This document shows positions 9,645 through 33,216 of a DNA stretch of 52,734 nucleotides, in pieces (positions within the stretch are counted from its first letter, which is position 1; each line of letters begins with the position of its first letter). This DNA comes from a virus. A program made the translations under genes and the position numbers. The notes beneath the pieces were generated by a model that was not told the DNA's origin, searched no databases, and saw nothing but the letters and a program-made list of their open reading frames with translations. The stretch lies in the UHGV virus genome UHGV-0124967. The stretch is one strand, 5' to 3'.

Positions 9645-9650
9645 TAATAA

Positions 9651-9677
9651 CCCCGCTTCTCGCGGGGTCGTGTTTAT
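9651..9677 (+). terminator. rho-independent terminator ending the plus-strand moron operon
   Basis: CCCCGC-TTCTC-GCGGGG hairpin followed by T-rich TCGTGTTTAT. Confidence 0.6.
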
Positions 9678-10874: not shown

Positions 10875-10913
10875 AAAAATAACCCCGGCATTGCACCGGG
10901 GTTTAGTTTATTT
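10875..10913. terminator. bidirectional rho-independent terminator
   Basis: CCCCGG-CATTGCA-CCGGGG hairpin (10883-10901) with A-run before and T-rich after; overlaps tape-measure stop. Confidence 0.65.
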
Positions 10914-13377: not shown

Positions 13378-14037
13378 ATGAAACGGTTAGCAAAAGTGGC
13401 AATGATTGCGGCGGTATTGGGTCTGGTTGGTTGCAATGAGGATAATGAAAAAGCGCCTATAGTGACCACTCAAGAACAACAAGCATTAGCAGAGAAAAAT
13501 GCTAAATGGCTTGCAGAACAACAAGCAAAACAAGCCGCATATGAGGCACAGTTAGCAAAAGAAAAAGCTGGTAAACAGTGGCTTGTGGTCGAAAGAAAAG
13601 ATGATATGCAGGACACAAAAAACGTGTTCCTTTTCGTGAAAGCAGAACATTTCAGCGGAAGTCTTGATGCTTTCCCTACACTGAAAGCACGGGATGAAAA
13701 CAAACCTGTATTAACAATCGCTTGCCAGGGTAATAAAACAAAAATGTTCGTAGCATGGTCAAACCATGTAACTGACGCTGGGGACACTACTTATATTAAC
13801 TACCGGATCGGCGATCACAAAGCTGTAGCTACTGAATGGAGTCGGTCAACTAACTATAAAGCTCTTGGATTATGGAACGGCAAAAAAGCCATTCCAATGA
13901 TTAAAAAACTGGTTAACGAAAAACAATTTATCATTGAAGTAGTGCCGGAAGCTGGCGACATTGAGAAAGCAGTGTTTAACATTGATGGTCTTTATAACCA
14001 CATCGACAAAGTGAAAAACGCTTGCAACTGGAATTAA
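13378..14037 (+). CDS. lipoprotein, 219 aa (tail-region moron), function unknown
   Basis: ATG 13378 with GAGGTGG RBS; signal peptide with lipobox LVGC; coiled-coil-like segment; AT-rich compared with neighbours. Confidence 0.7.
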   Translation: MKRLAKVAMIAAVLGLVGCNEDNEKAPIVTTQEQQALAEKNAKWLAEQQAKQAAYEAQLAKEKAGKQWLVVERKDDMQDTKNVFLFVKAEHFSGSLDAFPTLKARDENKPVLTIACQGNKTKMFVAWSNHVTDAGDTTYINYRIGDHKAVATEWSRSTNYKALGLWNGKKAIPMIKKLVNEKQFIIEVVPEAGDIEKAVFNIDGLYNHIDKVKNACNWN

Positions 14038-14046
14038 GGGTGAAAC

Positions 14047-14367
14047 ATGAAACGCGATGAATGGATGAGAAAATGGGAACATAAACAAGTAGCATATAAT
14101 CGCAAGATGAACCGCGAATTTGACTTCGGTGTCGCAGAGCGTGATTGTGGGTATAAAGGAAATCTAAATGGTGCATATGTTCAACATGTTGGCGATAAAC
14201 AGTATTATTACATTGTCAACTTCAACCATGTATTGCACGCAGATCTGGTTGTTATTGATGGGAAAACAAAAATAGTAGCGAATAAACGCATTAATAAGAA
14301 CGCAGCAATCAATATATTAACAGTGATTCGCACCCAGATGAATGTGCTTTACGAAAAAATAGCATAA
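14047..14367 (+). CDS. hypothetical protein, 106 aa, co-transcribed with lipoprotein
   Basis: ATG 14047, 7 nt after lipoprotein stop, AAGGGTGA RBS. Confidence 0.55.
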   Translation: MKRDEWMRKWEHKQVAYNRKMNREFDFGVAERDCGYKGNLNGAYVQHVGDKQYYYIVNFNHVLHADLVVIDGKTKIVANKRINKNAAINILTVIRTQMNVLYEKIA

Positions 14368-14380
14368 GCGAACTTAACAA

Positions 14381-14409
14381 AAACGCCCGGATCTACCGGG
14401 CTTTTTCTT
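14381..14409. terminator. bidirectional rho-independent terminator
   Basis: GCCCGG-ATCTA-CCGGGC followed by T5CTT; the minus-strand chaperone stop sits in the loop. Confidence 0.65.
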
Positions 14410-15082: not shown

Positions 15083-15107
15083 AAAAGAAAAGGGGCCAAA
15101 TGGCCCC
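15083..15107 (-). terminator. hairpin terminator/attenuator after major tail gene
   Basis: GGGGCC-AAAT-GGCCCC followed on minus strand by T-run. Confidence 0.6.
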
Positions 15108-17419: not shown

Positions 17420-17447
17420 AAAAAAAATCCCCGGCATTGCGCCGGGG
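17420..17447 (-). terminator. hairpin terminator/attenuator after major capsid gene
   Basis: CCCCGGC-ATTGC-GCCGGGG followed on minus strand by T8; near-identical stem to 10883-10901. Confidence 0.65.
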
Positions 17448-17466
17448 AGCTACAGAAACATATCAA

Positions 17467-18531
17467 TCAGATATTGCTGCCGTAGACCACTCCTGAACGA
17501 CCTTTCATGTCACGGGTGATTTGCAGACCCTCAGCGGACATGATGCGGAAGTTGTAGTTATCAGTCGGCATCATGCGCGGTAACGGTACAACACCAGTAG
17601 TCATACCAATCAGCGGGGTAATTACGCTACGGCTGCGCTGATAAGCAATGAACTCGTTGCCGGACAATGCATAGCTCTGGCGAATCTCACCAACCGGAGC
17701 GAACGGCATAATGACGCTCAGCACGCTACCAACTACAGCACCATTGACGATGTGCGGACGGGCCAGGTTAGCCATGATCTCAGGCGATACCCACATGACG
17801 TCGTATTTAGCTACGAAGTTGGCGCGAGCCAGCTTGCCGAACTCACCAACGGTGAAGAAGTCAATGATCTTGTCGAAACCCACAGTAGGCAGGTCGACTT
17901 TTGCGACGGTTTTTAGTTTAAGCTGCTGGGTGCTTTTGTGGTTTTTAATACCCATAGCTTTATGACCATCAACCACGATGCGATCGTTACCATTCAGGTA
18001 GAACTGGACGCGTGCTTTGTTGAATTTTTTCAGTTTCAGGCGCTGACTATCCAGGGCAAGGTCGATGCCTACAGTACTCAAGCCCTGAGCGAGACGCCAG
18101 TTAACACCGTAACCAGCCGCGAACATCGGGATCGGGTCGCCATCGCTATCGTATTCGGTGTGATCAAAGCCGTGTGGCGCTTGACCATCCATAGACATCA
18201 CAACTTCATCATTGATGTCACCGGATACGTTGTACATTTTCAGCGTTTTACCGACTGGCAGTACGGTTTGCACACCCATCAGGTCGTTTACGATCTCAAT
18301 ACCGATTTCTTCGGTGTTCAGTTCGATAATCTGGTTATCGATTTCTTTCCAGAATTCTTTTGCGAAGCCGCCGACGGCGTTACAGGCCAACATTTCAGCG
18401 GTCATATTTGCCTGATTTGCTGCAATCATGGCGTTGTGCTGCGCGTTGAAGATATTGCGTTGCGCCCACAGTTCTTTCCAATGGCCCTGCATACGGGCGT
18501 TGGTGGCAAGGTTTTCTTTTGTAAAGTACAT
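17467..18531 (-). CDS. major capsid protein
   Basis: 354 aa between decoration and neck genes, followed by attenuator. Confidence 0.7.
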   Translation of the reverse strand: MYFTKENLATNARMQGHWKELWAQRNIFNAQHNAMIAANQANMTAEMLACNAVGGFAKEFWKEIDNQIIELNTEEIGIEIVNDLMGVQTVLPVGKTLKMYNVSGDINDEVVMSMDGQAPHGFDHTEYDSDGDPIPMFAAGYGVNWRLAQGLSTVGIDLALDSQRLKLKKFNKARVQFYLNGNDRIVVDGHKAMGIKNHKSTQQLKLKTVAKVDLPTVGFDKIIDFFTVGEFGKLARANFVAKYDVMWVSPEIMANLARPHIVNGAVVGSVLSVIMPFAPVGEIRQSYALSGNEFIAYQRSRSVITPLIGMTTGVVPLPRMMPTDNYNFRIMSAEGLQITRDMKGRSGVVYGSNI

Positions 18532-25836: not shown

Positions 25837-26307
25837 CTATTCTTTGCGTAAACACTGAGTTTTGATGTAGTCCTGTAGGCCAGTGATCTGTGCGTCTTTC
25901 TCTTTTAGTTGTTCTCTGAGGGATAGATAAGATTGTCTAGCAGTGGCATCAAGCTCGCAGGTGGCTCCATCAATGCGGCTGGCGGTCGCGGCGGGGTCGG
26001 ACACTCGCACGGGTATTGCGTTGACGCGCAACCGGATAGTACCGTTATCAATGCCAGTGCGCAGATCGGCAATGTCAGATCTGATAGCTTTAATCTCATC
26101 GTGATACCTCTTATCAAGTTTTGACAGTTCGGCGTTTCGCTCCTTCATCTGCTGAATAGTGTTACTTGCCGTTTTCAGTGCGCCTTTCGTTACCGTGACT
26201 TCTTCCTGTAACCTTGCCGCCTCACCATGGTAATAACATGTTACGGCGGTCAGTCCGGCAATAATGCAAACAACAGCGGCGATGATTAACGTCTTCACCT
26301 TGTCCAT
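25837..26307 (-). CDS. Rz: i-spanin Rz
   Basis: 156 aa; N-terminal TM segment then coiled coil; directly downstream of endolysin. Confidence 0.8.
25905..26099 (-). CDS. Rz1: o-spanin Rz1 (lipoprotein embedded in Rz, +1 frame)
   Basis: First ATG 26099; lipobox LSGC; Pro-rich mature part; entirely inside Rz. Confidence 0.7.
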   Translation of the reverse strand: MRLKLSDLTLPICALALITVLSGCASTQYPCECPTPPRPPAALMEPPASLMPLLDNLIYPSENN

Positions 26308-26786
26308 GTTTCACCCCATTCGCAAACGGCATACTCAACATCACGGCGATTAATTAACCCTTGCCACTGCTTACCGCCAGCATATATCCAGCGTTTAAGC
26401 TGTGCGCACGCCTCTGATTTCTTACCGTCATTGAGTAGTTTTAATAAGGTTGATGTTTTGAAGTTGGTAGCGCCTACGTTATAGGCGAATGAATAAAGTG
26501 CTGCGCGGGTAAAATCTGATATTTCGACTTTGATATATGGGTCAATCGCTTTTGCGGTCTTGTGTAGATCTTTATTTAACAAAGCATCGCATTCTGATTG
26601 CGTGTAAGTCTTACCAAGCATGATGTCTTTTCCGACGTGTCCATAACATATCGTGTAAACACCGATGACATCTCTGTATGGCTTATACTCAACGCCTTCA
26701 AGATCTTTTATCATCACCGCCGCAATAGCGATCGCCCCACCAGCCGCCGCCGCAACAATCTTGTTTTTCAGCGATTGGCTAATCAT
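26295..26786 (-). CDS. SAR endolysin (T4-lysozyme-like)
   Basis: 163 aa; N-terminal Gly/Ala-rich weakly hydrophobic SAR segment then catalytic region [22 protein letters not shown]; close to phage 21 R as recalled. Confidence 0.9.
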
Positions 26787-26987
26787 TTACTTATTCCCCA
26801 TTCGCGCGTCGTGTTCCTCTTGCGCCCGCTTGTTCTCCTGTGATTTGAAGTAATAATTAACGGCAAATGTGCCTACGGTTGATAAGATACCAACGAAAAC
26901 AGCGATGTCATTGATGGTTATCGCGCCGAAAAAAGCAGTTACGGCCCCAGTCACATACGCACACGCCTCACGTATTCTGTCGAACAT
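26787..26987 (-). CDS. class II holin (pinholin-like)
   Basis: 66 aa, two hydrophobic segments, charged C-terminus; directly upstream of SAR endolysin. Confidence 0.7.
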   Translation of the reverse strand: MFDRIREACAYVTGAVTAFFGAITINDIAVFVGILSTVGTFAVNYYFKSQENKRAQEEHDARMGNK

Positions 26988-26999
26988 GGATTTTCCTCC

Positions 27000-27028
27000 A
27001 ACAAAGCAAAACCCGGCGCGGGGCCGGG
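27000..27028 (-). terminator. intrinsic terminator in late leader (tR'-like)
   Basis: CCCGGC-GCGGG-GCCGGG hairpin followed on minus strand by T-rich TTTTGCTTTGTT, about 20 nt upstream of holin RBS. Confidence 0.5.
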
Positions 27029-27056
27029 TAATTACAATTTCGCATTGTTAGGAAAT

Positions 27057-27085
27057 ATTTTAATCTGTTTGTTTGCGCTCTACAA
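27057..27085 (-). promoter_or_regulatory. putative late promoter (pR'-like)
   Basis: Minus strand TTGTAG (27085..27080), 17 bp, TAAAAT (27062..27057); leader of about 50 nt ends in the hairpin above. Confidence 0.45.
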
Positions 27086-27093
27086 ATACGGCG

Positions 27094-27321
27094 TTAACGA
27101 TAAGGTCCAAGCAAACGAACAAGCCATTCTTTGTATTTGACGGCAACGTGTTTTGGTGCAAAATATCCTTGCACTTCCTTACCGCCTCGCCACTCCCTTC
27201 TAAATTCGCACTCGTTTTGATACTCCTTTCCGCTTTTACTATCCAGCCAGCAAGCAGGTGAGTAACCTTTTTCACTTCCGAACCGATGCCATATTGATGA
27301 CAGCAAAACCCTTTCTTCCAT
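27094..27321 (-). CDS. hypothetical protein, 75 aa
   Basis: ATG start; preferred over overlapping GTG-start ORF 27060..27275, which would overlap the predicted promoter. Confidence 0.5.
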   Translation of the reverse strand: MEERVLLSSIWHRFGSEKGYSPACWLDSKSGKEYQNECEFRREWRGGKEVQGYFAPKHVAVKYKEWLVRLLGPYR

Positions 27322-27486
27322 ATTACCCCAACAAATACGGCTTTACTGCTTTCTGTATATCAGGCCATTATCAAGCAATGTTTGCATGTGTTCGCGATCC
27401 ATGCCGCTTGATTCCCAATGTGGCCCAGGTATTCGCAACCAATCGTAAACCCAGGGTATTCGCCTTTACACCGGATTTTGTAAAGT

Positions 27487-27810
27487 TTATTTGATGCGCT
27501 CAATTTCCGACCCTCCACTTTCTGCTTCAGTGATTTTGTATTCTGCCGCCAGTTCAGCGCCAAGCAATTCCACTTCCATATTAGCGATACCGTGGAACAT
27601 CAGATAGGCAAAAACTAGGCTTTTAATTCTATCCGGGTCTTCAAGATGGTCTGCATTAAAAGGCGGTTCCGATATGTGGAAGCATTTAACATGCGCATCG
27701 TCTTCAGTGGCTACACGGAAACATGTGCCAGGTTGCCCGGCGAATTCCCCCCATCTTTCTTCGTTCGGTAAAGTACCACGGAAAACTTTAACGCTGATAA
27801 ATTTAGTCAT
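27487..27810 (-). CDS. hypothetical protein, 107 aa
   Basis: Track ORF with ATG start; part of co-directional small-gene array. Confidence 0.5.
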   Translation of the reverse strand: MTKFISVKVFRGTLPNEERWGEFAGQPGTCFRVATEDDAHVKCFHISEPPFNADHLEDPDRIKSLVFAYLMFHGIANMEVELLGAELAAEYKITEAESGGSEIERIK

Positions 27811-27813
27811 TGT

Positions 27814-28095
27814 TTATTCTCCTTCGTAAAGAGTTGCCACCAGTTCGGCATCTGTTAGCGTGTTATAATCTGTATAAAACCCGCAACGCATAAGTGAAGA
27901 AAGGCCAGCCACTTTGCACCACATAGGGGTCGATTCGCTCAAATATTCATTCTCCCTTTTTTCGCTGTATTCCAGTTCATAAAACCGACTATTGTTAACA
28001 CCCTCAATTACACGGCTGTATGTGCCATCAAGCCTACTAACTCCGCGCCATAGTCTGATCACAACCATAATTTCTACTCCGTTTGATGGGGCCAT
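27814..28095 (-). CDS. hypothetical protein, 93 aa (or 84 aa from ATG 28068, which has a GGAG RBS)
   Basis: Track ORF; stop 4 nt before next gene start. Confidence 0.5.
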   Translation of the reverse strand: MAPSNGVEIMVVIRLWRGVSRLDGTYSRVIEGVNNSRFYELEYSEKRENEYLSESTPMWCKVAGLSSLMRCGFYTDYNTLTDAELVATLYEGE

Positions 28096-28107
28096 TCGGC
28101 CCCGTGT

Positions 28108-28248
28108 TTATTCTTCTTCTCCTCCTCTAAATCCTAAGCACTCCGCGTATTCGTCAATGCTTGATGCTTCTTCACCTGGTGCCAATACTTCAAAGTAGCG
28201 GGCGTATAGTTCGAAAACCCAGGCCGGATATTTAGCGTTAGCGTTCAT
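28108..28248 (-). CDS. hypothetical acidic protein, 46 aa
   Basis: ATG 28248 with AAGGGGGAA RBS; fills the gap between two track ORFs. Confidence 0.4.
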   Translation of the reverse strand: MNANAKYPAWVFELYARYFEVLAPGEEASSIDEYAECLGFRGGEEE

Positions 28249-28257
28249 GGTTCCCCC

Positions 28258-28536
28258 TTATGCCATGCGTGCAAATTCAAGTGATTTGCATTCGTAGTCT
28301 TCCTCTGCCTGTTCGATGACTGCCATCATCATTTCGTTTGCGTTGTTGAATGCGTTGCTTTGTGCGAACTTGTCGGCTCCACCTTCTTCTTCGAACTCCG
28401 CGTTGTTTGCTGCAATGTAGTGATATTCGATGTTGTTCAGGTAAGGGCTTGCAGCGTGTGCTGGGTCTTCTTTCTCCACCATCTCCCAAAATGCGTTTAA
28501 GCGAGATTCGACTTCTTTGTTAATCCAGCGTTTCAT
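28258..28536 (-). CDS. hypothetical acidic protein, 92 aa
   Basis: GGAGGG RBS; preceded by 98-bp intergenic region with inverted repeat and CRP-like site. Confidence 0.5.
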   Translation of the reverse strand: MKRWINKEVESRLNAFWEMVEKEDPAHAASPYLNNIEYHYIAANNAEFEEEGGADKFAQSNAFNNANEMMMAVIEQAEEDYECKSLEFARMA

Positions 28537-28617
28537 TTTTCTACCCTCCGCATCGTTCTCTCTTCAGCTTCTTTATAACAAAATGGCACTGCCGAAACAA
28601 TGCCATTTCGTAAACCT

Positions 28618-28633
28618 TGTGATACAGATCACA
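28618..28633. promoter_or_regulatory. CRP-consensus-like palindrome TGTGA-N6-TCACA
   Basis: TGTGATACAGATCACA; adjacent to inverted repeat AAATGGCA...TGCCATTT (28582-28608). Confidence 0.35.
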
Positions 28634-28634
28634 T

Positions 28635-28859
28635 TTACGTTTCTTCCGTAAAAGTAACCTTCATCGCCCCATCCGAACTACGGACAACATAACGACCAAT
28701 ACCGCCTAGCGGCCCTGCATACCATAAGTGACCGTAAGTGTCAGTCACGACGATAAACGGAAATTTAGGAGACAATCCCATCGGTTTTTCAGCCGTATAC
28801 TGTGCGCCTTCTTCAAAACAGCCTAATTTCGATTCGTTACACGTTAAAATCATTTTCAT
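28635..28859 (-). CDS. small protein, paralogue family member A (74 aa)
   Basis: Shares F..G.IY...D..G.LW.F-type pattern with the next three genes. Confidence 0.55.
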   Translation of the reverse strand: MKMILTCNESKLGCFEEGAQYTAEKPMGLSPKFPFIVVTDTYGHLWYAGPLGGIGRYVVRSSDGAMKVTFTEET

Positions 28860-29095
28860 ACCCCTACATACGAAAACGCAGCAAAAGCACCACCACCAGC
28901 ACGCGCATAAACAAGTGCCGTGCCATACCCCATCTTATAAAATCGCCATAACTGACCCTGGTCGTCAGTAATGGCATGAATATATTCCTGATCCTTTGCG
29001 TCAACCAATGCCGCGTCAACCTCGTAGATCTTGCCATTCTTAAAAAACGCGCTGCATCGTGAGTATGTGCACTGGTATCTATGTTTCCGATTCAT
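28856..29095 (-). CDS. small protein, paralogue family member B (79 aa)
   Basis: GTGAGGTG RBS; ATGA overlap with A. Confidence 0.55.
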   Translation of the reverse strand: MNRKHRYQCTYSRCSAFFKNGKIYEVDAALVDAKDQEYIHAITDDQGQLWRFYKMGYGTALVYARAGGGAFAAFSYVGV

Positions 29096-29105
29096 AGCAC
29101 CTCAC

Positions 29106-29363
29106 TTATTCCGGTTTACTGCCTTCGCGGGCGCAAAACTCCGCGATCTCACGGAAATCATGCACTATGCGATAAATATACAAACCAGCGGCGTTATTGA
29201 TATGGCTAACATAAGCGAAATAAACTTTATCATCATCGCCAGTTATCGCCATTGCACCATCACCGCCCGGTGCGCCGTGGAGTTGAACGCCGCAATAGAT
29301 CTTCCCTTCTTCAAAAATATTGCGGTCGCGCGTCTGTAATACCTCAAAATATAAATGTTTCAT
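29106..29363 (-). CDS. small protein, paralogue family member C (85 aa)
   Basis: ATG 29363 with AAAGGGG RBS (track ORF extends to 29399). Confidence 0.55.
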   Translation of the reverse strand: MKHLYFEVLQTRDRNIFEEGKIYCGVQLHGAPGGDGAMAITGDDDKVYFAYVSHINNAAGLYIYRIVHDFREIAEFCAREGSKPE

Positions 29364-29373
29364 TGTTGCCCCT

Positions 29374-29586
29374 TTAATAACGTTCAAAGCTGGCAGCAAA
29401 ACCTACACCGGATATTTCACCGCCTTCATAGCTCGGCCTGAATACCCATATTTCGTCATGATTATCAATCAAGGCAAGGCAATTACTCATTGTGTGTGCT
29501 TCATTGCCATAAACGATGTGAACGTCATAAATACTCCCAATCGTGAAAACACTGTCATTGCTTGAGTATGAGCATTTAACTTGCAT
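29374..29586 (-). CDS. small protein, paralogue family member D (70 aa)
   Basis: Start overlaps upstream stop by 1 nt. Confidence 0.55.
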   Translation of the reverse strand: MQVKCSYSSNDSVFTIGSIYDVHIVYGNEAHTMSNCLALIDNHDEIWVFRPSYEGGEISGVGFAASFERY

Positions 29587-29831
29587 CAGAAAACCCCTTT
29601 ATAATCGACCGTGTATTTTGCTATCAGATTCCAGTCGCAGTAATTAAGCATGTTGCGAGGCTGCCAGCCTTTCATCCCGACCGCCCGCCGCGCAGCGTGA
29701 CGGCGATAATCATCGTTATAGTCAGCTATGCACCACGGCTGGAGAACAAACATATAATTTGCTTCATTAACCAGGATAGCCACCAGCTTTCCTGTTGCCT
29801 TGTCTTTTGCCCTGAAATAATTCACTTTCAT
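29586..29831 (-). CDS. hypothetical protein, 81 aa
   Basis: Track ORF, coupled to neighbours. Confidence 0.5.
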   Translation of the reverse strand: MKVNYFRAKDKATGKLVAILVNEANYMFVLQPWCIADYNDDYRRHAARRAVGMKGWQPRNMLNYCDWNLIAKYTVDYKGVF

Positions 29832-30043
29832 TTTAACACCTCGTCGATCAACATTTCTTCTTCCAGGTTAGCCGGACGTTTACGAAATATCCCGGCAAAA
29901 ACCAGATCTTCGAGTAGGTCTTTACGCTTAAATAACCACTCTTTCATTATCACCCCGTCGTTGCTGCGATATACGACGCCGCTTTTCAGAAAATAAAAAG
30001 TGCGGCTATTGGTCTGTAGGTAGAGATCTTCGTAAACGTCCAT
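29828..30043 (-). CDS. hypothetical protein, 71 aa
   Basis: Track ORF, 4-nt overlap with downstream gene. Confidence 0.5.
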   Translation of the reverse strand: MDVYEDLYLQTNSRTFYFLKSGVVYRSNDGVIMKEWLFKRKDLLEDLVFAGIFRKRPANLEEEMLIDEVLK

Positions 30044-30047
30044 ACCG

Positions 30048-30275
30048 TTAATCCTCTACAATCTCAAGCCCGCGCCCCTTGTCCCCGACGAAATCGCCCA
30101 AGCTGAACGTATACGACCACGCCGGATTGATGTAATGGTCATCAGCACCAGCGGCAATGAGATCAGCACCATTAATCATGCAAGTAATATCATCGCTATG
30201 AACGACATTAACGACCTTACCAACAACCTGTTTCAATGACTGGTATCCGTGATCGTGCAAGAATTTAACTTTCAT
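30048..30275 (-). CDS. hypothetical protein, 75 aa (distant resemblance to the A-D family)
   Basis: Track ORF with ATG. Confidence 0.5.
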   Translation of the reverse strand: MKVKFLHDHGYQSLKQVVGKVVNVVHSDDITCMINGADLIAAGADDHYINPAWSYTFSLGDFVGDKGRGLEIVED

Positions 30276-30505
30276 TCGTCTGCCTCCCAGTGGTCTATGC
30301 TGATTAAAAAGTCCCGGATAGCGTGTCGTTCGTCGCGCGTTGGCTTGCGCTTACGGTAAATCTTAAAGTCAAACCATTCTTTTTCTTGTTCGAAATCCAG
30401 GTTGTAAGCAAGCACCTCAATATATCCACATTCGTGATACTGGTACGCCACGCCAGCACGAACAAAAAAGCGGGTTTTATCCCGCTTGTGTTCATAGATA
30501 CGCAT
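30272..30505 (-). CDS. hypothetical protein, 77 aa
   Basis: Track ORF; ATGA overlap. Confidence 0.5.
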   Translation of the reverse strand: MRIYEHKRDKTRFFVRAGVAYQYHECGYIEVLAYNLDFEQEKEWFDFKIYRKRKPTRDERHAIRDFLISIDHWEADE

Positions 30506-30515
30506 ATTTGCCCCA

Positions 30516-30746
30516 CTATGCAGTCGTGTAACTATCTACCAGCTTTTCATCCTTCATTCTGGCAAGCTGGGAGATATTCATCGTGTAGCCTTCATCAGAG
30601 AAAAGCCACTCCGCAGCCTTGCGACGAAAAGCTATATCATCATGGTTGCGCGTCCATGTAGCGATCACCACGCGCTTTCCATCAGTGGCAAACATGGTTA
30701 ATTCGTTATCAACAACGTCGATAGCCTGCCAGATTTTTAGTTCCAT
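30516..30746 (-). CDS. hypothetical protein, 76 aa
   Basis: Track ORF. Confidence 0.5.
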   Translation of the reverse strand: MELKIWQAIDVVDNELTMFATDGKRVVIATWTRNHDDIAFRRKAAEWLFSDEGYTMNISQLARMKDEKLVDSYTTA

Positions 30747-31102
30747 GATTTATCACCGTAGATCTTGAATAGTTCACACGCTTTCTGATCTTCAAATATA
30801 TTCATATGCAGGTCACGCAGACGGCGCATTGTTCGGAATCGCGGTCTAAACTCCTGGCTCCGTTTAATGTATTTGCCGCCAATTGAATAAATATGCCCGT
30901 ATGAATACCATCTATTCCCTACCCATATTTCATATTCTTTGCCTTCGTAATTGAATTTTATCGTTAGCTCGTCCACTTCAACTATTGACCATTTATCAAT
31001 GATGTCATTAAGCATTTCGTCCCATTCTTTCAGGAATGGATGCTGATAAAAACCGAAAAGCGTATTTGCAGCGTGGCAAAGGTAATCAATGATTATTTGC
31101 AT
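30737..31102 (-). CDS. hypothetical protein, 121 aa
   Basis: Track ORF; Trp/Tyr-rich. Confidence 0.55.
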   Translation of the reverse strand: MQIIIDYLCHAANTLFGFYQHPFLKEWDEMLNDIIDKWSIVEVDELTIKFNYEGKEYEIWVGNRWYSYGHIYSIGGKYIKRSQEFRPRFRTMRRLRDLHMNIFEDQKACELFKIYGDKSWN

Positions 31103-31322
31103 ATTTCCACCTTCTCAATATGTAGTAAATGTTATCGTAAGCTATATTATCCGCATCTTCCTGTGTTATATGTCTGGCATCAAAAAAGAAATCAGCGTCG
31201 TGCCATACATGAAAAAGAAGTCGCGCGAATTATCTGCGGCGGCGCTTACTGCGTGATAGTTCGTTAAATTCTATTAACGCTTTATCATATGCTCTTATCA
31301 TGCGCTTACGGTTACTTTTCAT
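31085..31322 (-). pseudogene. tandem paralogue of 31327..31527 interrupted by an in-frame TAA
   Basis: ATG 31322 gives MKSNRKRMIRAYDKALIEFNELSRSKRRRR, then TAA (31232..31230), then same frame continues FARLLFHVWHDAD...DNIYYI; this matches the upstream gene product on both sides of the stop. Confidence 0.45.
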
Positions 31323-31326
31323 ATTG

Positions 31327-31527
31327 TCACCACATCATATAGTAAACGTTATCATCTGCTAATTCGTCTGCGTCTCTTTGGCAGTCGATTGTCGCATCAT
31401 CTTCGTGCCATTCTTTAGCAAATAAACGCGCCCATTTACGACGCTCACGTTTATTGTGCCGCAGGTCACTAAAAACCATTAAAGCCTTGTCGTAAGCTCT
31501 TACCAGGCGTTTCATTCTACTTTTCAT
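31327..31527 (-). CDS. hypothetical basic protein, 66 aa (intact copy of duplicated gene)
   Basis: MKSRMKRLVRAYDKALMVF...DNVYYMMW. Confidence 0.5.
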   Translation of the reverse strand: MKSRMKRLVRAYDKALMVFSDLRHNKRERRKWARLFAKEWHEDDATIDCQRDADELADDNVYYMMW

Positions 31528-31733
31528 TTTTCACCCTTCCTTAATTCCTTAATTTCAATATTGCGTAACCGGACGTCGCACGGCGTTTCAGATTTACCAG
31601 TAAGCGCCAGCGTCAGGTTTTCAGGTGTCGTGTAAAGAATTATCTCTTTACCAGTGCTAAATTTAATTTCTATGCGGATCTCGTTTTCATCACCGCACAA
31701 TACGCGGCTAATTGACAGGCCAGCTTTTTTCAT
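31524..31733 (-). CDS. hypothetical protein, 69 aa
   Basis: Track ORF; ATGA overlap. Confidence 0.5.
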   Translation of the reverse strand: MKKAGLSISRVLCGDENEIRIEIKFSTGKEIILYTTPENLTLALTGKSETPCDVRLRNIEIKELRKGEK

Positions 31734-31746
31734 TGCTCAACAAACC

Positions 31747-32058
31747 TTAAAATCTGTATTGCCAGTAAATATCACACTTTATTGCGAATACCTTCACCGG
31801 ATCAGGGCCGAATAGTGGATGTTGAATCAACTTGATTTCGTACCCCATGTAAGGCAATACGATAATCCGGTCTTTCTCATCATCCGATGGATAACCCCAT
31901 TTAATGATTAATCTTGTGTACTCCCGCCCCTCCAGGCGTTTACGCCAGTATTCATTGTAAAGCCGGTATTCTTCCACCTTCTTTCCCGCCCGGATGGCGT
32001 GGAAGTATTCACCTTTTAAATTCAAATGTAAGTGTTTATTTGCCATCGCTATGATCAT
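31747..32058 (-). CDS. putative ASCH-domain protein (start 32058 or 32046)
   Basis: HAIRAGKKVEEYRL fits the ASCH GxKxxExR motif. Confidence 0.5.
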   Translation of the reverse strand: MIIAMANKHLHLNLKGEYFHAIRAGKKVEEYRLYNEYWRKRLEGREYTRLIIKWGYPSDDEKDRIIVLPYMGYEIKLIQHPLFGPDPVKVFAIKCDIYWQYRF

Positions 32059-32305
32059 GTAAACAGTCGTTATAGCCTTCGATGTATCCGGTTAATCCTG
32101 TGTTACTTACTGACCAATCAGCCGAACGGCGCTTGATGGCCTTGTCCATAGTCATCTCGTCACCTGGCCCGCCTGGCTCGATGTATTTTCTTAAATCCCT
32201 TACTATCCACGCCCTTAATTGTTGCGTATCACTGCACACACGCGCCGTTAATGTCAGATTATTAACCAGCTTTGCGAATAGATGTTCTTTTAATTTAGGC
32301 TTCAT
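32036..32305 (-). CDS. hypothetical protein, 89 aa
   Basis: GAGGTGA RBS. Confidence 0.5.
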   Translation of the reverse strand: MKPKLKEHLFAKLVNNLTLTARVCSDTQQLRAWIVRDLRKYIEPGGPGDEMTMDKAIKRRSADWSVSNTGLTGYIEGYNDCLHDHSDGK

Positions 32306-32501
32306 CCTTCACCTCGCGACGATAGATTTCTACTGGCTTAACCGGAATAGCGTTAAAATCACCTTCATCCAGTGCGGCAATAAACGTTAGCGCCAACCGT
32401 GCTTCAACACCGCTTAAATACTTGCACCATGCCTCACCGTTATAATCTTTAAAAAGAATAATCACTTTTTCATGTTTATCTCTTGTTGTTTCATTATTCA
32501 C
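32295..32501 (-). CDS. hypothetical protein, 68 aa, non-ATG (GTG) start
   Basis: No in-frame ATG; begins at GTG overlapping the Q stop. Confidence 0.4.
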   Translation of the reverse strand: MNNETTRDKHEKVIILFKDYNGEAWCKYLSGVEARLALTFIAALDEGDFNAIPVKPVEIYRREVKDEA

Positions 32502-33216
32502 CCCGTGTCACTCGTTTAATTTCGTTATCAGCCCGCGCCTCTTCTTTGAACAATTCAGTAATGGCGTCTTCATAGAAAGCACGGTATTTCTTCCACCACG
32601 TTGATCGGCTTACCGGAAATACAAGCTGATTAACCGCACGCCGGACAAGATCTACAGGGAAACGCGAGTACCCGCGCCCGCCGCAATGCTGGCACGTTTT
32701 GAACACTGGCATTTCCGCTGCTTCACTGGCTGCTTTATCCGGTATCTCGCCGCGCCCTTTGCATCGTTTACAATGATTGCGAACTTTTCCATGCCCCTTG
32801 CATTTTTTGCAAAGGTGTTTTTCTCCGTAGTCGTCAAACGTAAATTTATATCCGCCGCAATCCATACAAGTTTTTTCTGTCGCGGCACTCTGGCAGTAAT
32901 CCCGAAACGCGAAAACGGCAACAAGAATAATAAGATCATTGCGTTTGTCCTCGTCCAACTCCATGACGTATTCGTAATCTTTTGCCATAGCTCTTAAACG
33001 CTCTGTAAGCAAAACTACGGCCCTGTGTTTTTCGGCTTGCGATAATTCCATCTTCCCTAAAAAAGCGCTATAACCAAGCTCTACGCGCGATTGCGCCATA
33101 CCTGCTGCGGTTAGTGCATCAGTAGTATTAAGCGAGTCTGGGGACGTGCCCCGGCTTTCATCTGACAAACGCGGTGATTTTGGGAAGTGGAATTTAAGAA
33201 TAGATTCCAAATTCAT
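32494..33216 (-). CDS. Q: late-gene antitermination protein Q (zinc-finger type)
   Basis: 240 aa; four CxxCxGxG repeats; follows RusA and a small gene as in nin regions. Confidence 0.65.
   Translation of the reverse strand: MNLESILKFHFPKSPRLSDESRGTSPDSLNTTDALTAAGMAQSRVELGYSAFLGKMELSQAEKHRAVVLLTERLRAMAKDYEYVMELDEDKRNDLIILVAVFAFRDYCQSAATEKTCMDCGGYKFTFDDYGEKHLCKKCKGHGKVRNHCKRCKGRGEIPDKAASEAAEMPVFKTCQHCGGRGYSRFPVDLVRRAVNQLVFPVSRSTWWKKYRAFYEDAITELFKEEARADNEIKRVTRGE

Follow-up and report, generated by a model that had tools for sequence, protein, structure and literature searches.

A predicted compact Q-lambda-type late cassette directly upstream of the holin gene in mEp021-like coliphages

The 107-nt gap that separates the upstream stop codon from the ATG of the holin gene in this phage is, in our judgement, probably a complete and very compact late cassette of the Q-lambda type. 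The DNA analyzed (the window) is the whole stretch of 52,734 nucleotides presented as UHGV virus genome UHGV-0124967, and it comes from a temperate coliphage of the 'mEpimmI' group that resembles mEp021. In a comparison with 50,697 phage records, the 700 bases around the cassette matched only mEp010, mEp013, mEp021, mEp515, mEp044, mEp554 and MagusPhagus, and 35 of 5,426 complete E. coli genomes carried the intergenic block. An earlier note, made from the sequence of the window alone, had proposed a pR'/tR' arrangement at this position, with a promoter followed closely by a terminator. The features discussed below are as follows.

34657-34645, minus strand: boxA-like TGCTCTTTAAAAA of a nutR2-like site
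34637-34624, minus strand: boxB-like GCGCTGAAATGCGT of the same nutR2-like site
32494-33216, minus strand: Q antiterminator gene (240 aa, PF03589), presumed regulator of the cassette, 5.4 kb upstream of it
27094-32501, minus strand: small-gene array, about 22 closely packed ORFs that fill the interval from Q to the cassette with few gaps, the first overlapping the Q stop
27085-27080, minus strand: -35-like hexamer TTGTAG, three of six consensus matches, TTG kept; separated from TAAAAT by a 17-nt spacer
27063-27074, minus strand: conserved spacer element AAACAAACAGAT, candidate Q-binding element by conservation and position
27062-27057, minus strand: -10 hexamer TAAAAT, five of six consensus matches, invariant as GATTAAAAT in all 34 variants
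27050-27044, minus strand: TAACAAT, which resembles a further -10 and would cover about +1 to +6; by its lambda-family likeness, a candidate sigma70-dependent pause element (SDPE)
27049, minus strand: A, presumed start site
27029-27011, minus strand: hairpin ACCCGGC-CCCGC-GCCGGGT, 7-bp stem with six G-C pairs, 5-nt loop, about -13.3 kcal/mol
To 27000, minus strand: T-tract TTTGCTTTGTT, giving a terminator of 27000-27029 in total
26999-26995, minus strand: holin ribosome binding site (RBS) GGAGG, adjoining the T-tract and annotated as an RBS in mEp021
26787-26987, minus strand: holin (66 aa, ATG at 26987, Pfam PF16080), 97% identical to mEp021 gp46, first gene of the predicted late operon
26295-26786, minus strand: endolysin (Pfam PF00959)
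25837-26307, minus strand: Rz (Pfam PF03245), with an embedded Rz1-like lipoprotein ORF

The two hexamers and their 17-nt spacing lie on the minus strand as the earlier note had described them. Together they match 8 of 12 consensus positions, which is below the threshold of the consensus scan, and the site went uncalled. With a frequency-weighted matrix the site comes first among the 5,505 positions scored on the minus strand from the Q stop to the holin ATG, marginally (10.35 versus 10.03 bits for the next), and ranks 25th among the 105,406 positions of the window, where 25 sites score equally well or better; in relatives that have the -35, it is mostly among the top six between Q and holin. 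By themselves, the promoter hexamers are no better than chance and constitute weak evidence. It is the combination that exceeds chance: a promoter-like site, a pause-like element at the lambda spacing, a strong terminator, selective conservation, and a position in front of the lysis genes. For the 37-nt core, the window has a single copy and 100 shuffled sequences gave no match; the looser pattern of a -10 followed by AAC[GA][AC]T occurs six times against about nine expected. A promoter using AACAAT as its -10 was considered and rejected because the hairpin would then start at about +10; its -35 would be CAAACA, a worse pair of hexamers with 7 of 12 matches. An IHF-site reading of the conserved core was likewise set aside, by eye, for a misfit to the consensus spacing. 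In lambda, the Q-binding element lies between the -35 and the -10 (PMC9388147). The corresponding region here, AAACAAAYRGAT, is conserved at about -25 to -13; within it, 9 of the 12 columns of AAACAAACAGAT are invariant in the 34 variants collected from relatives, and the 7 nt upstream, just after the -35, are hypervariable.

Downstream of the -10 lies an element that was absent from the earlier note. The sequence TAACAATGCG (27050-27041) begins 6-7 nt after the -10. For comparison we used the annotated or recognizable pR' regions of seven Q-lambda-family phages, with which the window agrees in the order of its elements: -35, 17 nt, -10, 6-7 nt, (T)AAC(G/A)AT G(G/C)G and terminator. In lambda, P22, Brookers and PHB10, the -10 is followed after 6 nt by (T)AACGATGGG, the same spacing as in the window; the phi80 counterpart is TAACGCTGGG, and Erwinia phage 59 and SE1Spa carry TAACAC or TAACAG followed by TAGAAATCC. 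The sequence of the pause element itself agrees in five of the seven. The lambda counterpart is the sigma70-dependent pause element at which Q loads (PMC9388147). Among the 34 variants, CTAACAATGCGAAA (27051-27038) is invariant, with 12 of 12 columns in its scored part AACAATGCGAAA, and the discriminator that precedes it varies as ATT[T/A/C][C/T]C. At the level of sequence, then, the block contains a candidate pause element of the lambda family, and if transcription starts at A27049 this element would occupy +1 to +6, as it does in lambda.

The GC-rich hairpin and T-tract, followed by the holin RBS, were also as the earlier note had it, and the terminator was called by the scan. Counted from the presumed start, transcription would reach the hairpin at about +21, with release of the RNA at about +45 to +50. 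The same terminator is annotated in mEp021 (TERM_5, score 100), mEp010, mEp013, mEp515 and mEp044; in mEp021, where the intergenic region is 95% identical to that of the window, it stands just before holin gp46. Terminators t1, t2 and t5 of mEp021 are given as experimentally demonstrated (PMC11893012), and by the GenBank numbering TERM_1-5, t5 is probably the cassette hairpin. The late Q system of mEp021 is described merely as 'Q-lambda-like', and the mEp021-group records and PMC11893012 contain no promoter, pause element or Q site at the cassette, the terminator being the sole annotated element. No transcription start site, RNA-seq or reporter results for the cassette promoter were found in the papers and records consulted. 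Interrupted T-tracts of the form TTTT(T)GC(G/T)TTT occur in the terminator tails of P22, SE1Spa, PHB10, Erwinia phage 59 and the late leaders of the mEp group. The T-tract of the window (27000-27011) has TTTT, one T fewer than all 33 other mEp-group variants.

That the terminator alone is annotated, and probably alone tested (t5, PMC11893012), would fit another reading, in which the block is a terminator that closes the delayed-early (pR-nutR) operon and shields the lysis genes, the late genes are expressed by read-through of early transcripts (through the N-like Gp17 and/or Q acting elsewhere), and the promoter and pause hexamers are incidental products of AT-rich sequence. The unexceptional rank of the hexamers within the window would be expected on that reading. 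So would the nutR2-like boxA/boxB at 34657-34624, which lies upstream of ninF-ninG-rusA-Q and means that termination-resistant polymerase should arrive at the block. A 16-bp terminator-like hairpin precedes the boxA/boxB (34742-34707, minus strand), likewise upstream of ninF/ninG/rusA/Q, and the region 34742-34624 is probably the nutR2 site and t4 of mEp021. Once the N-like Gp17 has acted at nutR2, early transcription may continue past the cassette terminator; if polymerase modified in this way does pass, early transcription would also feed late expression. We nevertheless regard the terminator-only account as unlikely, since it leaves unexplained both the lambda-family geometry of -10 and pause element and the pattern of conservation described next.

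Conservation was assessed on 34 distinct variants, for which 7 phages and 43 IMG/VR loci were the source. Gathering through Q had yielded 45 IMG/VR loci, and a search with the block-core pattern returned 46 IMG/VR contigs, essentially the same set; in GTDB species genomes, neither the search with Q nor the one with the block pattern gave a match. The block occurs in one copy in each of the 50 loci and co-occurs on contigs with this type of Q. Within it, 64 of 90 columns are invariant, versus 9 of 23 third-codon positions in the holin gene and 4 of 37 columns upstream. All six columns of the -10 are invariant and the stems and T-tract nearly so; most variation in the terminator falls in the hairpin loop, which takes at least eight forms, and the discriminator and positions +13 to +20 are also variable. 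The block is kept beside at least four different upstream genes and two different holins, and its retention next to changing neighbors argues for a discrete module rather than a by-product of those neighbors. The pattern supports what would be predicted for a module of promoter, Q-binding element, pause element and terminator, and it is the invariance of GATTAAAAT and CTAACAATGCGAAA, beside varying neighbors and varying holin wobble positions, that a lone terminator fails to explain. All relatives come from one phage group and are closely related, so that the conservation partly reflects shared descent and gives no deep phylogenetic footprint; compensatory changes were not seen.

The same variants bear on whether the leader acts mainly on translation or RNA stability, through pairing of UUUCCUAACAA..GCGAAA with UUUUGC.UUUGUUGGAGGAAA that would mask the holin RBS. 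The minimum free energy (MFE) fold of the 111-nt region does pair those segments (-28.9 kcal/mol, z = -2.15), and in the fold of the 50-nt leader the 5' end pairs with the 3' end. The z-score is modest, however, and the T/A variants of the discriminator (ATTTCC versus ATTACC) and of the post-RBS segment (GGAGGAAAA versus GGAGGTAAA) fail to covary reliably, several block variants combining non-pairing forms. The remaining paired segments are invariant and therefore offer no evidence of covariation, and a start at about 27049 would leave the UUUCC segment out of the RNA. We rejected leader/anti-SD pairing as the main function and consider it very improbable. A nut-like boxB reading of ACAAT-GCGAA-ATTGT was also discarded: there is no boxA (GCTCTT), and the sequence is unlike the nutR2-like site of the phage itself. 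The weak 5-bp stem that ACAAU-GCGAA-AUUGU could form is not formed in the MFE fold. Rfam gave no match at the gathering threshold anywhere in the window, and only chance-level hits within 26700-27400 (E >= 0.33).

The least constant part of the cassette is its -35. It reads TTGTAG, TTGTGG or TTGTAT in about three quarters of relatives, but in Magus-type variants the left part of the block has been exchanged and the position is taken by ATCGCG/TCGCGC, with no alternative -35 or extended -10 in these variants. They make up 13 of the 50 fetched block-bearing loci (about 26%) and 13 of 35 E. coli prophages, and MagusPhagus, which lacks the -35, is nevertheless an isolated phage. Such phages have either a -10-only promoter or something unconventional. 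Absence of the -35 from a quarter of relatives is what incidental hexamers beside a delayed-early terminator would lead one to expect. It could also mean that the block is a promoter-independent site for Q loading, where polymerase that comes in from the early operon, 2-7 kb away on the upstream side, with sigma70 retained or re-bound would be halted by the -10-like elements and take on Q, or, as a variant, that -35-less initiation depends on Q or another phage factor; in either case Q loading in about a quarter of the mEpimmI group would be uncoupled from a conventional promoter. Three observations suit this idea: loss of the -35 is not accompanied by any change in the -10, the second -10-like element or the terminator; identical Q proteins are paired with both left-half types of the block, and so serve both variants; and Q and the block are always transcribed in the same direction, no strong terminator separating the two. 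Against it counts the inefficiency of sigma-dependent pausing at a distance from promoters. There is no precedent for it among the seven Q-lambda cassettes examined, in all of which the -35 is good and Q is only 25-45 nt away, and in three quarters of variants TTG is found at the correct 17-nt spacing beside hypervariable spacer positions, as expected of a real -35. We consider uncoupled loading very improbable; if true, it would represent Q-lambda-type action untied from a strong adjacent pR'.

For the preferred reading of a conventional Q-lambda-type cassette, a Q protein of the appropriate family is required, and the product of 32494-33216 matches PF03589 at E = 2.6e-30 with 35% identity to lambda Q over its full length. 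The two align end to end, with conservation of the N-terminal 44 residues; in lambda Q, the N-terminal segment forms the torus at the RNA exit channel (PMC9388147). The protein is 92% identical to mEp021 gp37, annotated as 'putative late gene regulator Q', and the next homologs have at most 37% identity. Alignment with seven family members showed conservation of Cys pairs and of the N-terminus. Compared with lambda Q, it contains an extra 31-aa Cys-rich zinc-ribbon segment in the 'arm', which most family members share in a longer version; the short forms without it are the Q proteins of lambda and P22. Residues 117-151 have the form CxxC...CxxC and give a sub-threshold DnaJ CXXCXGXG match (PF00684, 26.0 bits against a gathering cutoff of 32.7, E = 1.1e-05). 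Because of this extra CxxC...CxxC segment, the DNA-contacting arm probably consists of a double zinc ribbon, with the minimal form represented by the solved structure of lambda Q.

The position of the cassette differs from that in known phages. In the seven comparison phages it follows the Q stop by 25-45 nt, whereas the -10 lies 5.4 kb beyond the Q stop in the window and 1.9-6.7 kb beyond it in the 47 relatives where both Q and the block could be placed. In the IMG/VR loci, the block is always 3-7 kb downstream of Q. In the relatives the cassette sits at the distal end of the small-gene array, never beside Q, even as the content and length of the array vary widely. Adjacency to Q is a matter of organization that the mechanism does not require. 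We rejected the idea of a hidden pR' just behind Q: the sequence there is coding, lacks a pause-like element or terminator, and differs among relatives. No positionally conserved pair of promoter and terminator was seen elsewhere in the array, in the window or in relatives, and the want of any other candidate cassette, next to Q or in the array, is a further difficulty for the view that the block merely terminates early transcription.

The earlier note had held that the late operon starts at this point and not at Q, leaving the array outside the late transcript. The constant distal position of the block after the array, 1.9-6.7 kb from Q, makes a start here the most likely, and by inference from this position, the tight packing of the array and the lack of a rival pair, the array would belong with Q to a delayed-early transcript. 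The proposed pR'/tR' arrangement itself draws sequence support from the lambda-family Q, the pause-like element, the precedents for short leaders and the conservation. One gene in the array sits awkwardly with a purely early transcript and more comfortably with read-through from early promoters: a homolog of mEp021 gp41 (87% identity; 29831-30043, minus strand) lies upstream of the predicted late promoter and far from the structural cluster, and gp41 is annotated and reported as a virion structural protein.

Several other observations concern the array. The 75-aa ORF nearest the cassette (27094-27321, minus strand) has a weak KilA-N match (E = 0.0035) and looks like an insertion, flanked on either side by one copy of the 15-nt direct repeat TAANGCCGTATTTGT (27345-27331 and 27096-27082). 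Of an mEp021 gp45-like gene upstream of this ORF, just the C-terminal third is left (27343-27423/27438). The TTTGT of the '-35' falls within the repeat, which may be a recombination linker for gene shuffling. A terminator-like hairpin, AAGCGGGATAAAACCCGCTT then TTTTTGTTCGT (30468-30487, minus strand), lies inside the gp39-like ORF 30272-30505 and could be a chance occurrence or an internal attenuator. Tandem paralogous ORFs are found on the minus strand at 31103-31527, namely one of 66 aa (31327-31527, MKSRMKRLVRAYDKAL...) and a truncated one of 30 aa (31230-31322, MKSNRKRMIRAYDKAL...), and the 127-nt non-coding remnant that follows suggests a decaying duplication.

On the other side of the cassette, the minus strand, which also encodes the holin, continues beyond Rz with genes for the small and large terminase, the portal, the capsid and the tail. 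Strong terminator-like hairpins occur on the coding strand within this late gene cluster (17448-17428, 15107-15092 and 10903-10881), and a single long late transcript would therefore need processive antitermination begun upstream of them. Strong GC hairpins with T-tracts in the structural region are located at 9649-9669, 10881-10903, 14385-14401, 15092-15107 and 17428-17448, and some are bidirectional. One is 3' of a 354-aa ORF (17467-18531) that we take to be the probable capsid gene; others flank moron-like plus-strand ORFs, 13378-14367, in the tail region.

Among characterized systems, P22 offers a close parallel. Its antiterminator gp23 belongs to the Q-lambda family (PF03589), its sigma70 promoter is followed by AAC(G/A)AT at +1 to +6 and a close terminator with a TTTTTGC tail, and holin, endolysin and Rz come after; the P22 record annotates the late promoter, start site, qut site and t-late. 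In P22, however, the hairpin begins at +31 rather than at about +21, the -35 is a near-consensus TTGACT where the window has TTGTAG and some relatives have none, the cassette is 43 nt after the gene 23 stop versus 5.4 kb and about 22 small ORFs here, and some 300 nt separate terminator from holin, in contrast to a T-tract that runs straight into the holin RBS. Lambda has a Q of this family (35% identity, N-terminal torus segment conserved) and shares the order of -35, spacer, -10, discriminator and pause element, but its leader (6S RNA) is 194 nt against about 45-50 nt here, its Q lacks the extra zinc-ribbon segment, its cassette is adjacent to Q, and it has a TTGACT -35-like element beside the SDPE, for which no equivalent is evident in the window (ATTTCC). 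The phi80 Q (gp17) is of the same family and also has the zinc-ribbon insertion; the phi80 record annotates a -35, a Q-binding site in the spacer and a -10, after which come TAACGCTGGG and, some 47 nt from the start, a terminator, although that cassette is adjacent to Q and its Q-site spacer sequence is unrelated. PHB10, with a hairpin from about +27, has a short leader like that of the window.

Together, these parallels suggest how the cassette might work. Host sigma70 RNA polymerase would start near A27049 from the moderate promoter TTGTAG-17-TAAAAT and pause about 15 nt downstream as sigma region 2 re-binds the -10-like TAACAAT. Without Q, it would terminate at the GC hairpin and T-tract to give a leader RNA of about 45-50 nt. 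Once accumulated, Q would bind in the AAACAAACAGAT/-10 region and load onto the paused complex, and the modified polymerase would resist the cassette terminator and the intrinsic terminators within a lysis, packaging and structural operon of about 25 kb. The small-gene array would be transcribed with Q from the early-right operon, outside the late transcript.

The element thus appears to be an unannotated member of the known Q-lambda pR'/SDPE/tR' class with two modest peculiarities, its compactness and its displacement from Q, and it leaves the understanding of the Q protein mechanism unchanged. With promoter, candidate Q site, pause element, terminator and RBS within 107 nt, it could be convenient for tests of the Q-lambda mechanism or as a tight genetic switch. 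For the mEp021/mEpimmI phages, which are prevalent but little-studied gut coliphages in which only early N-like antitermination has been characterized, the analysis would place the start of the late operon, and it predicts that the array of small genes is delayed-early rather than late cargo. It also illustrates that a Q gene can lie at a distance from its target site.
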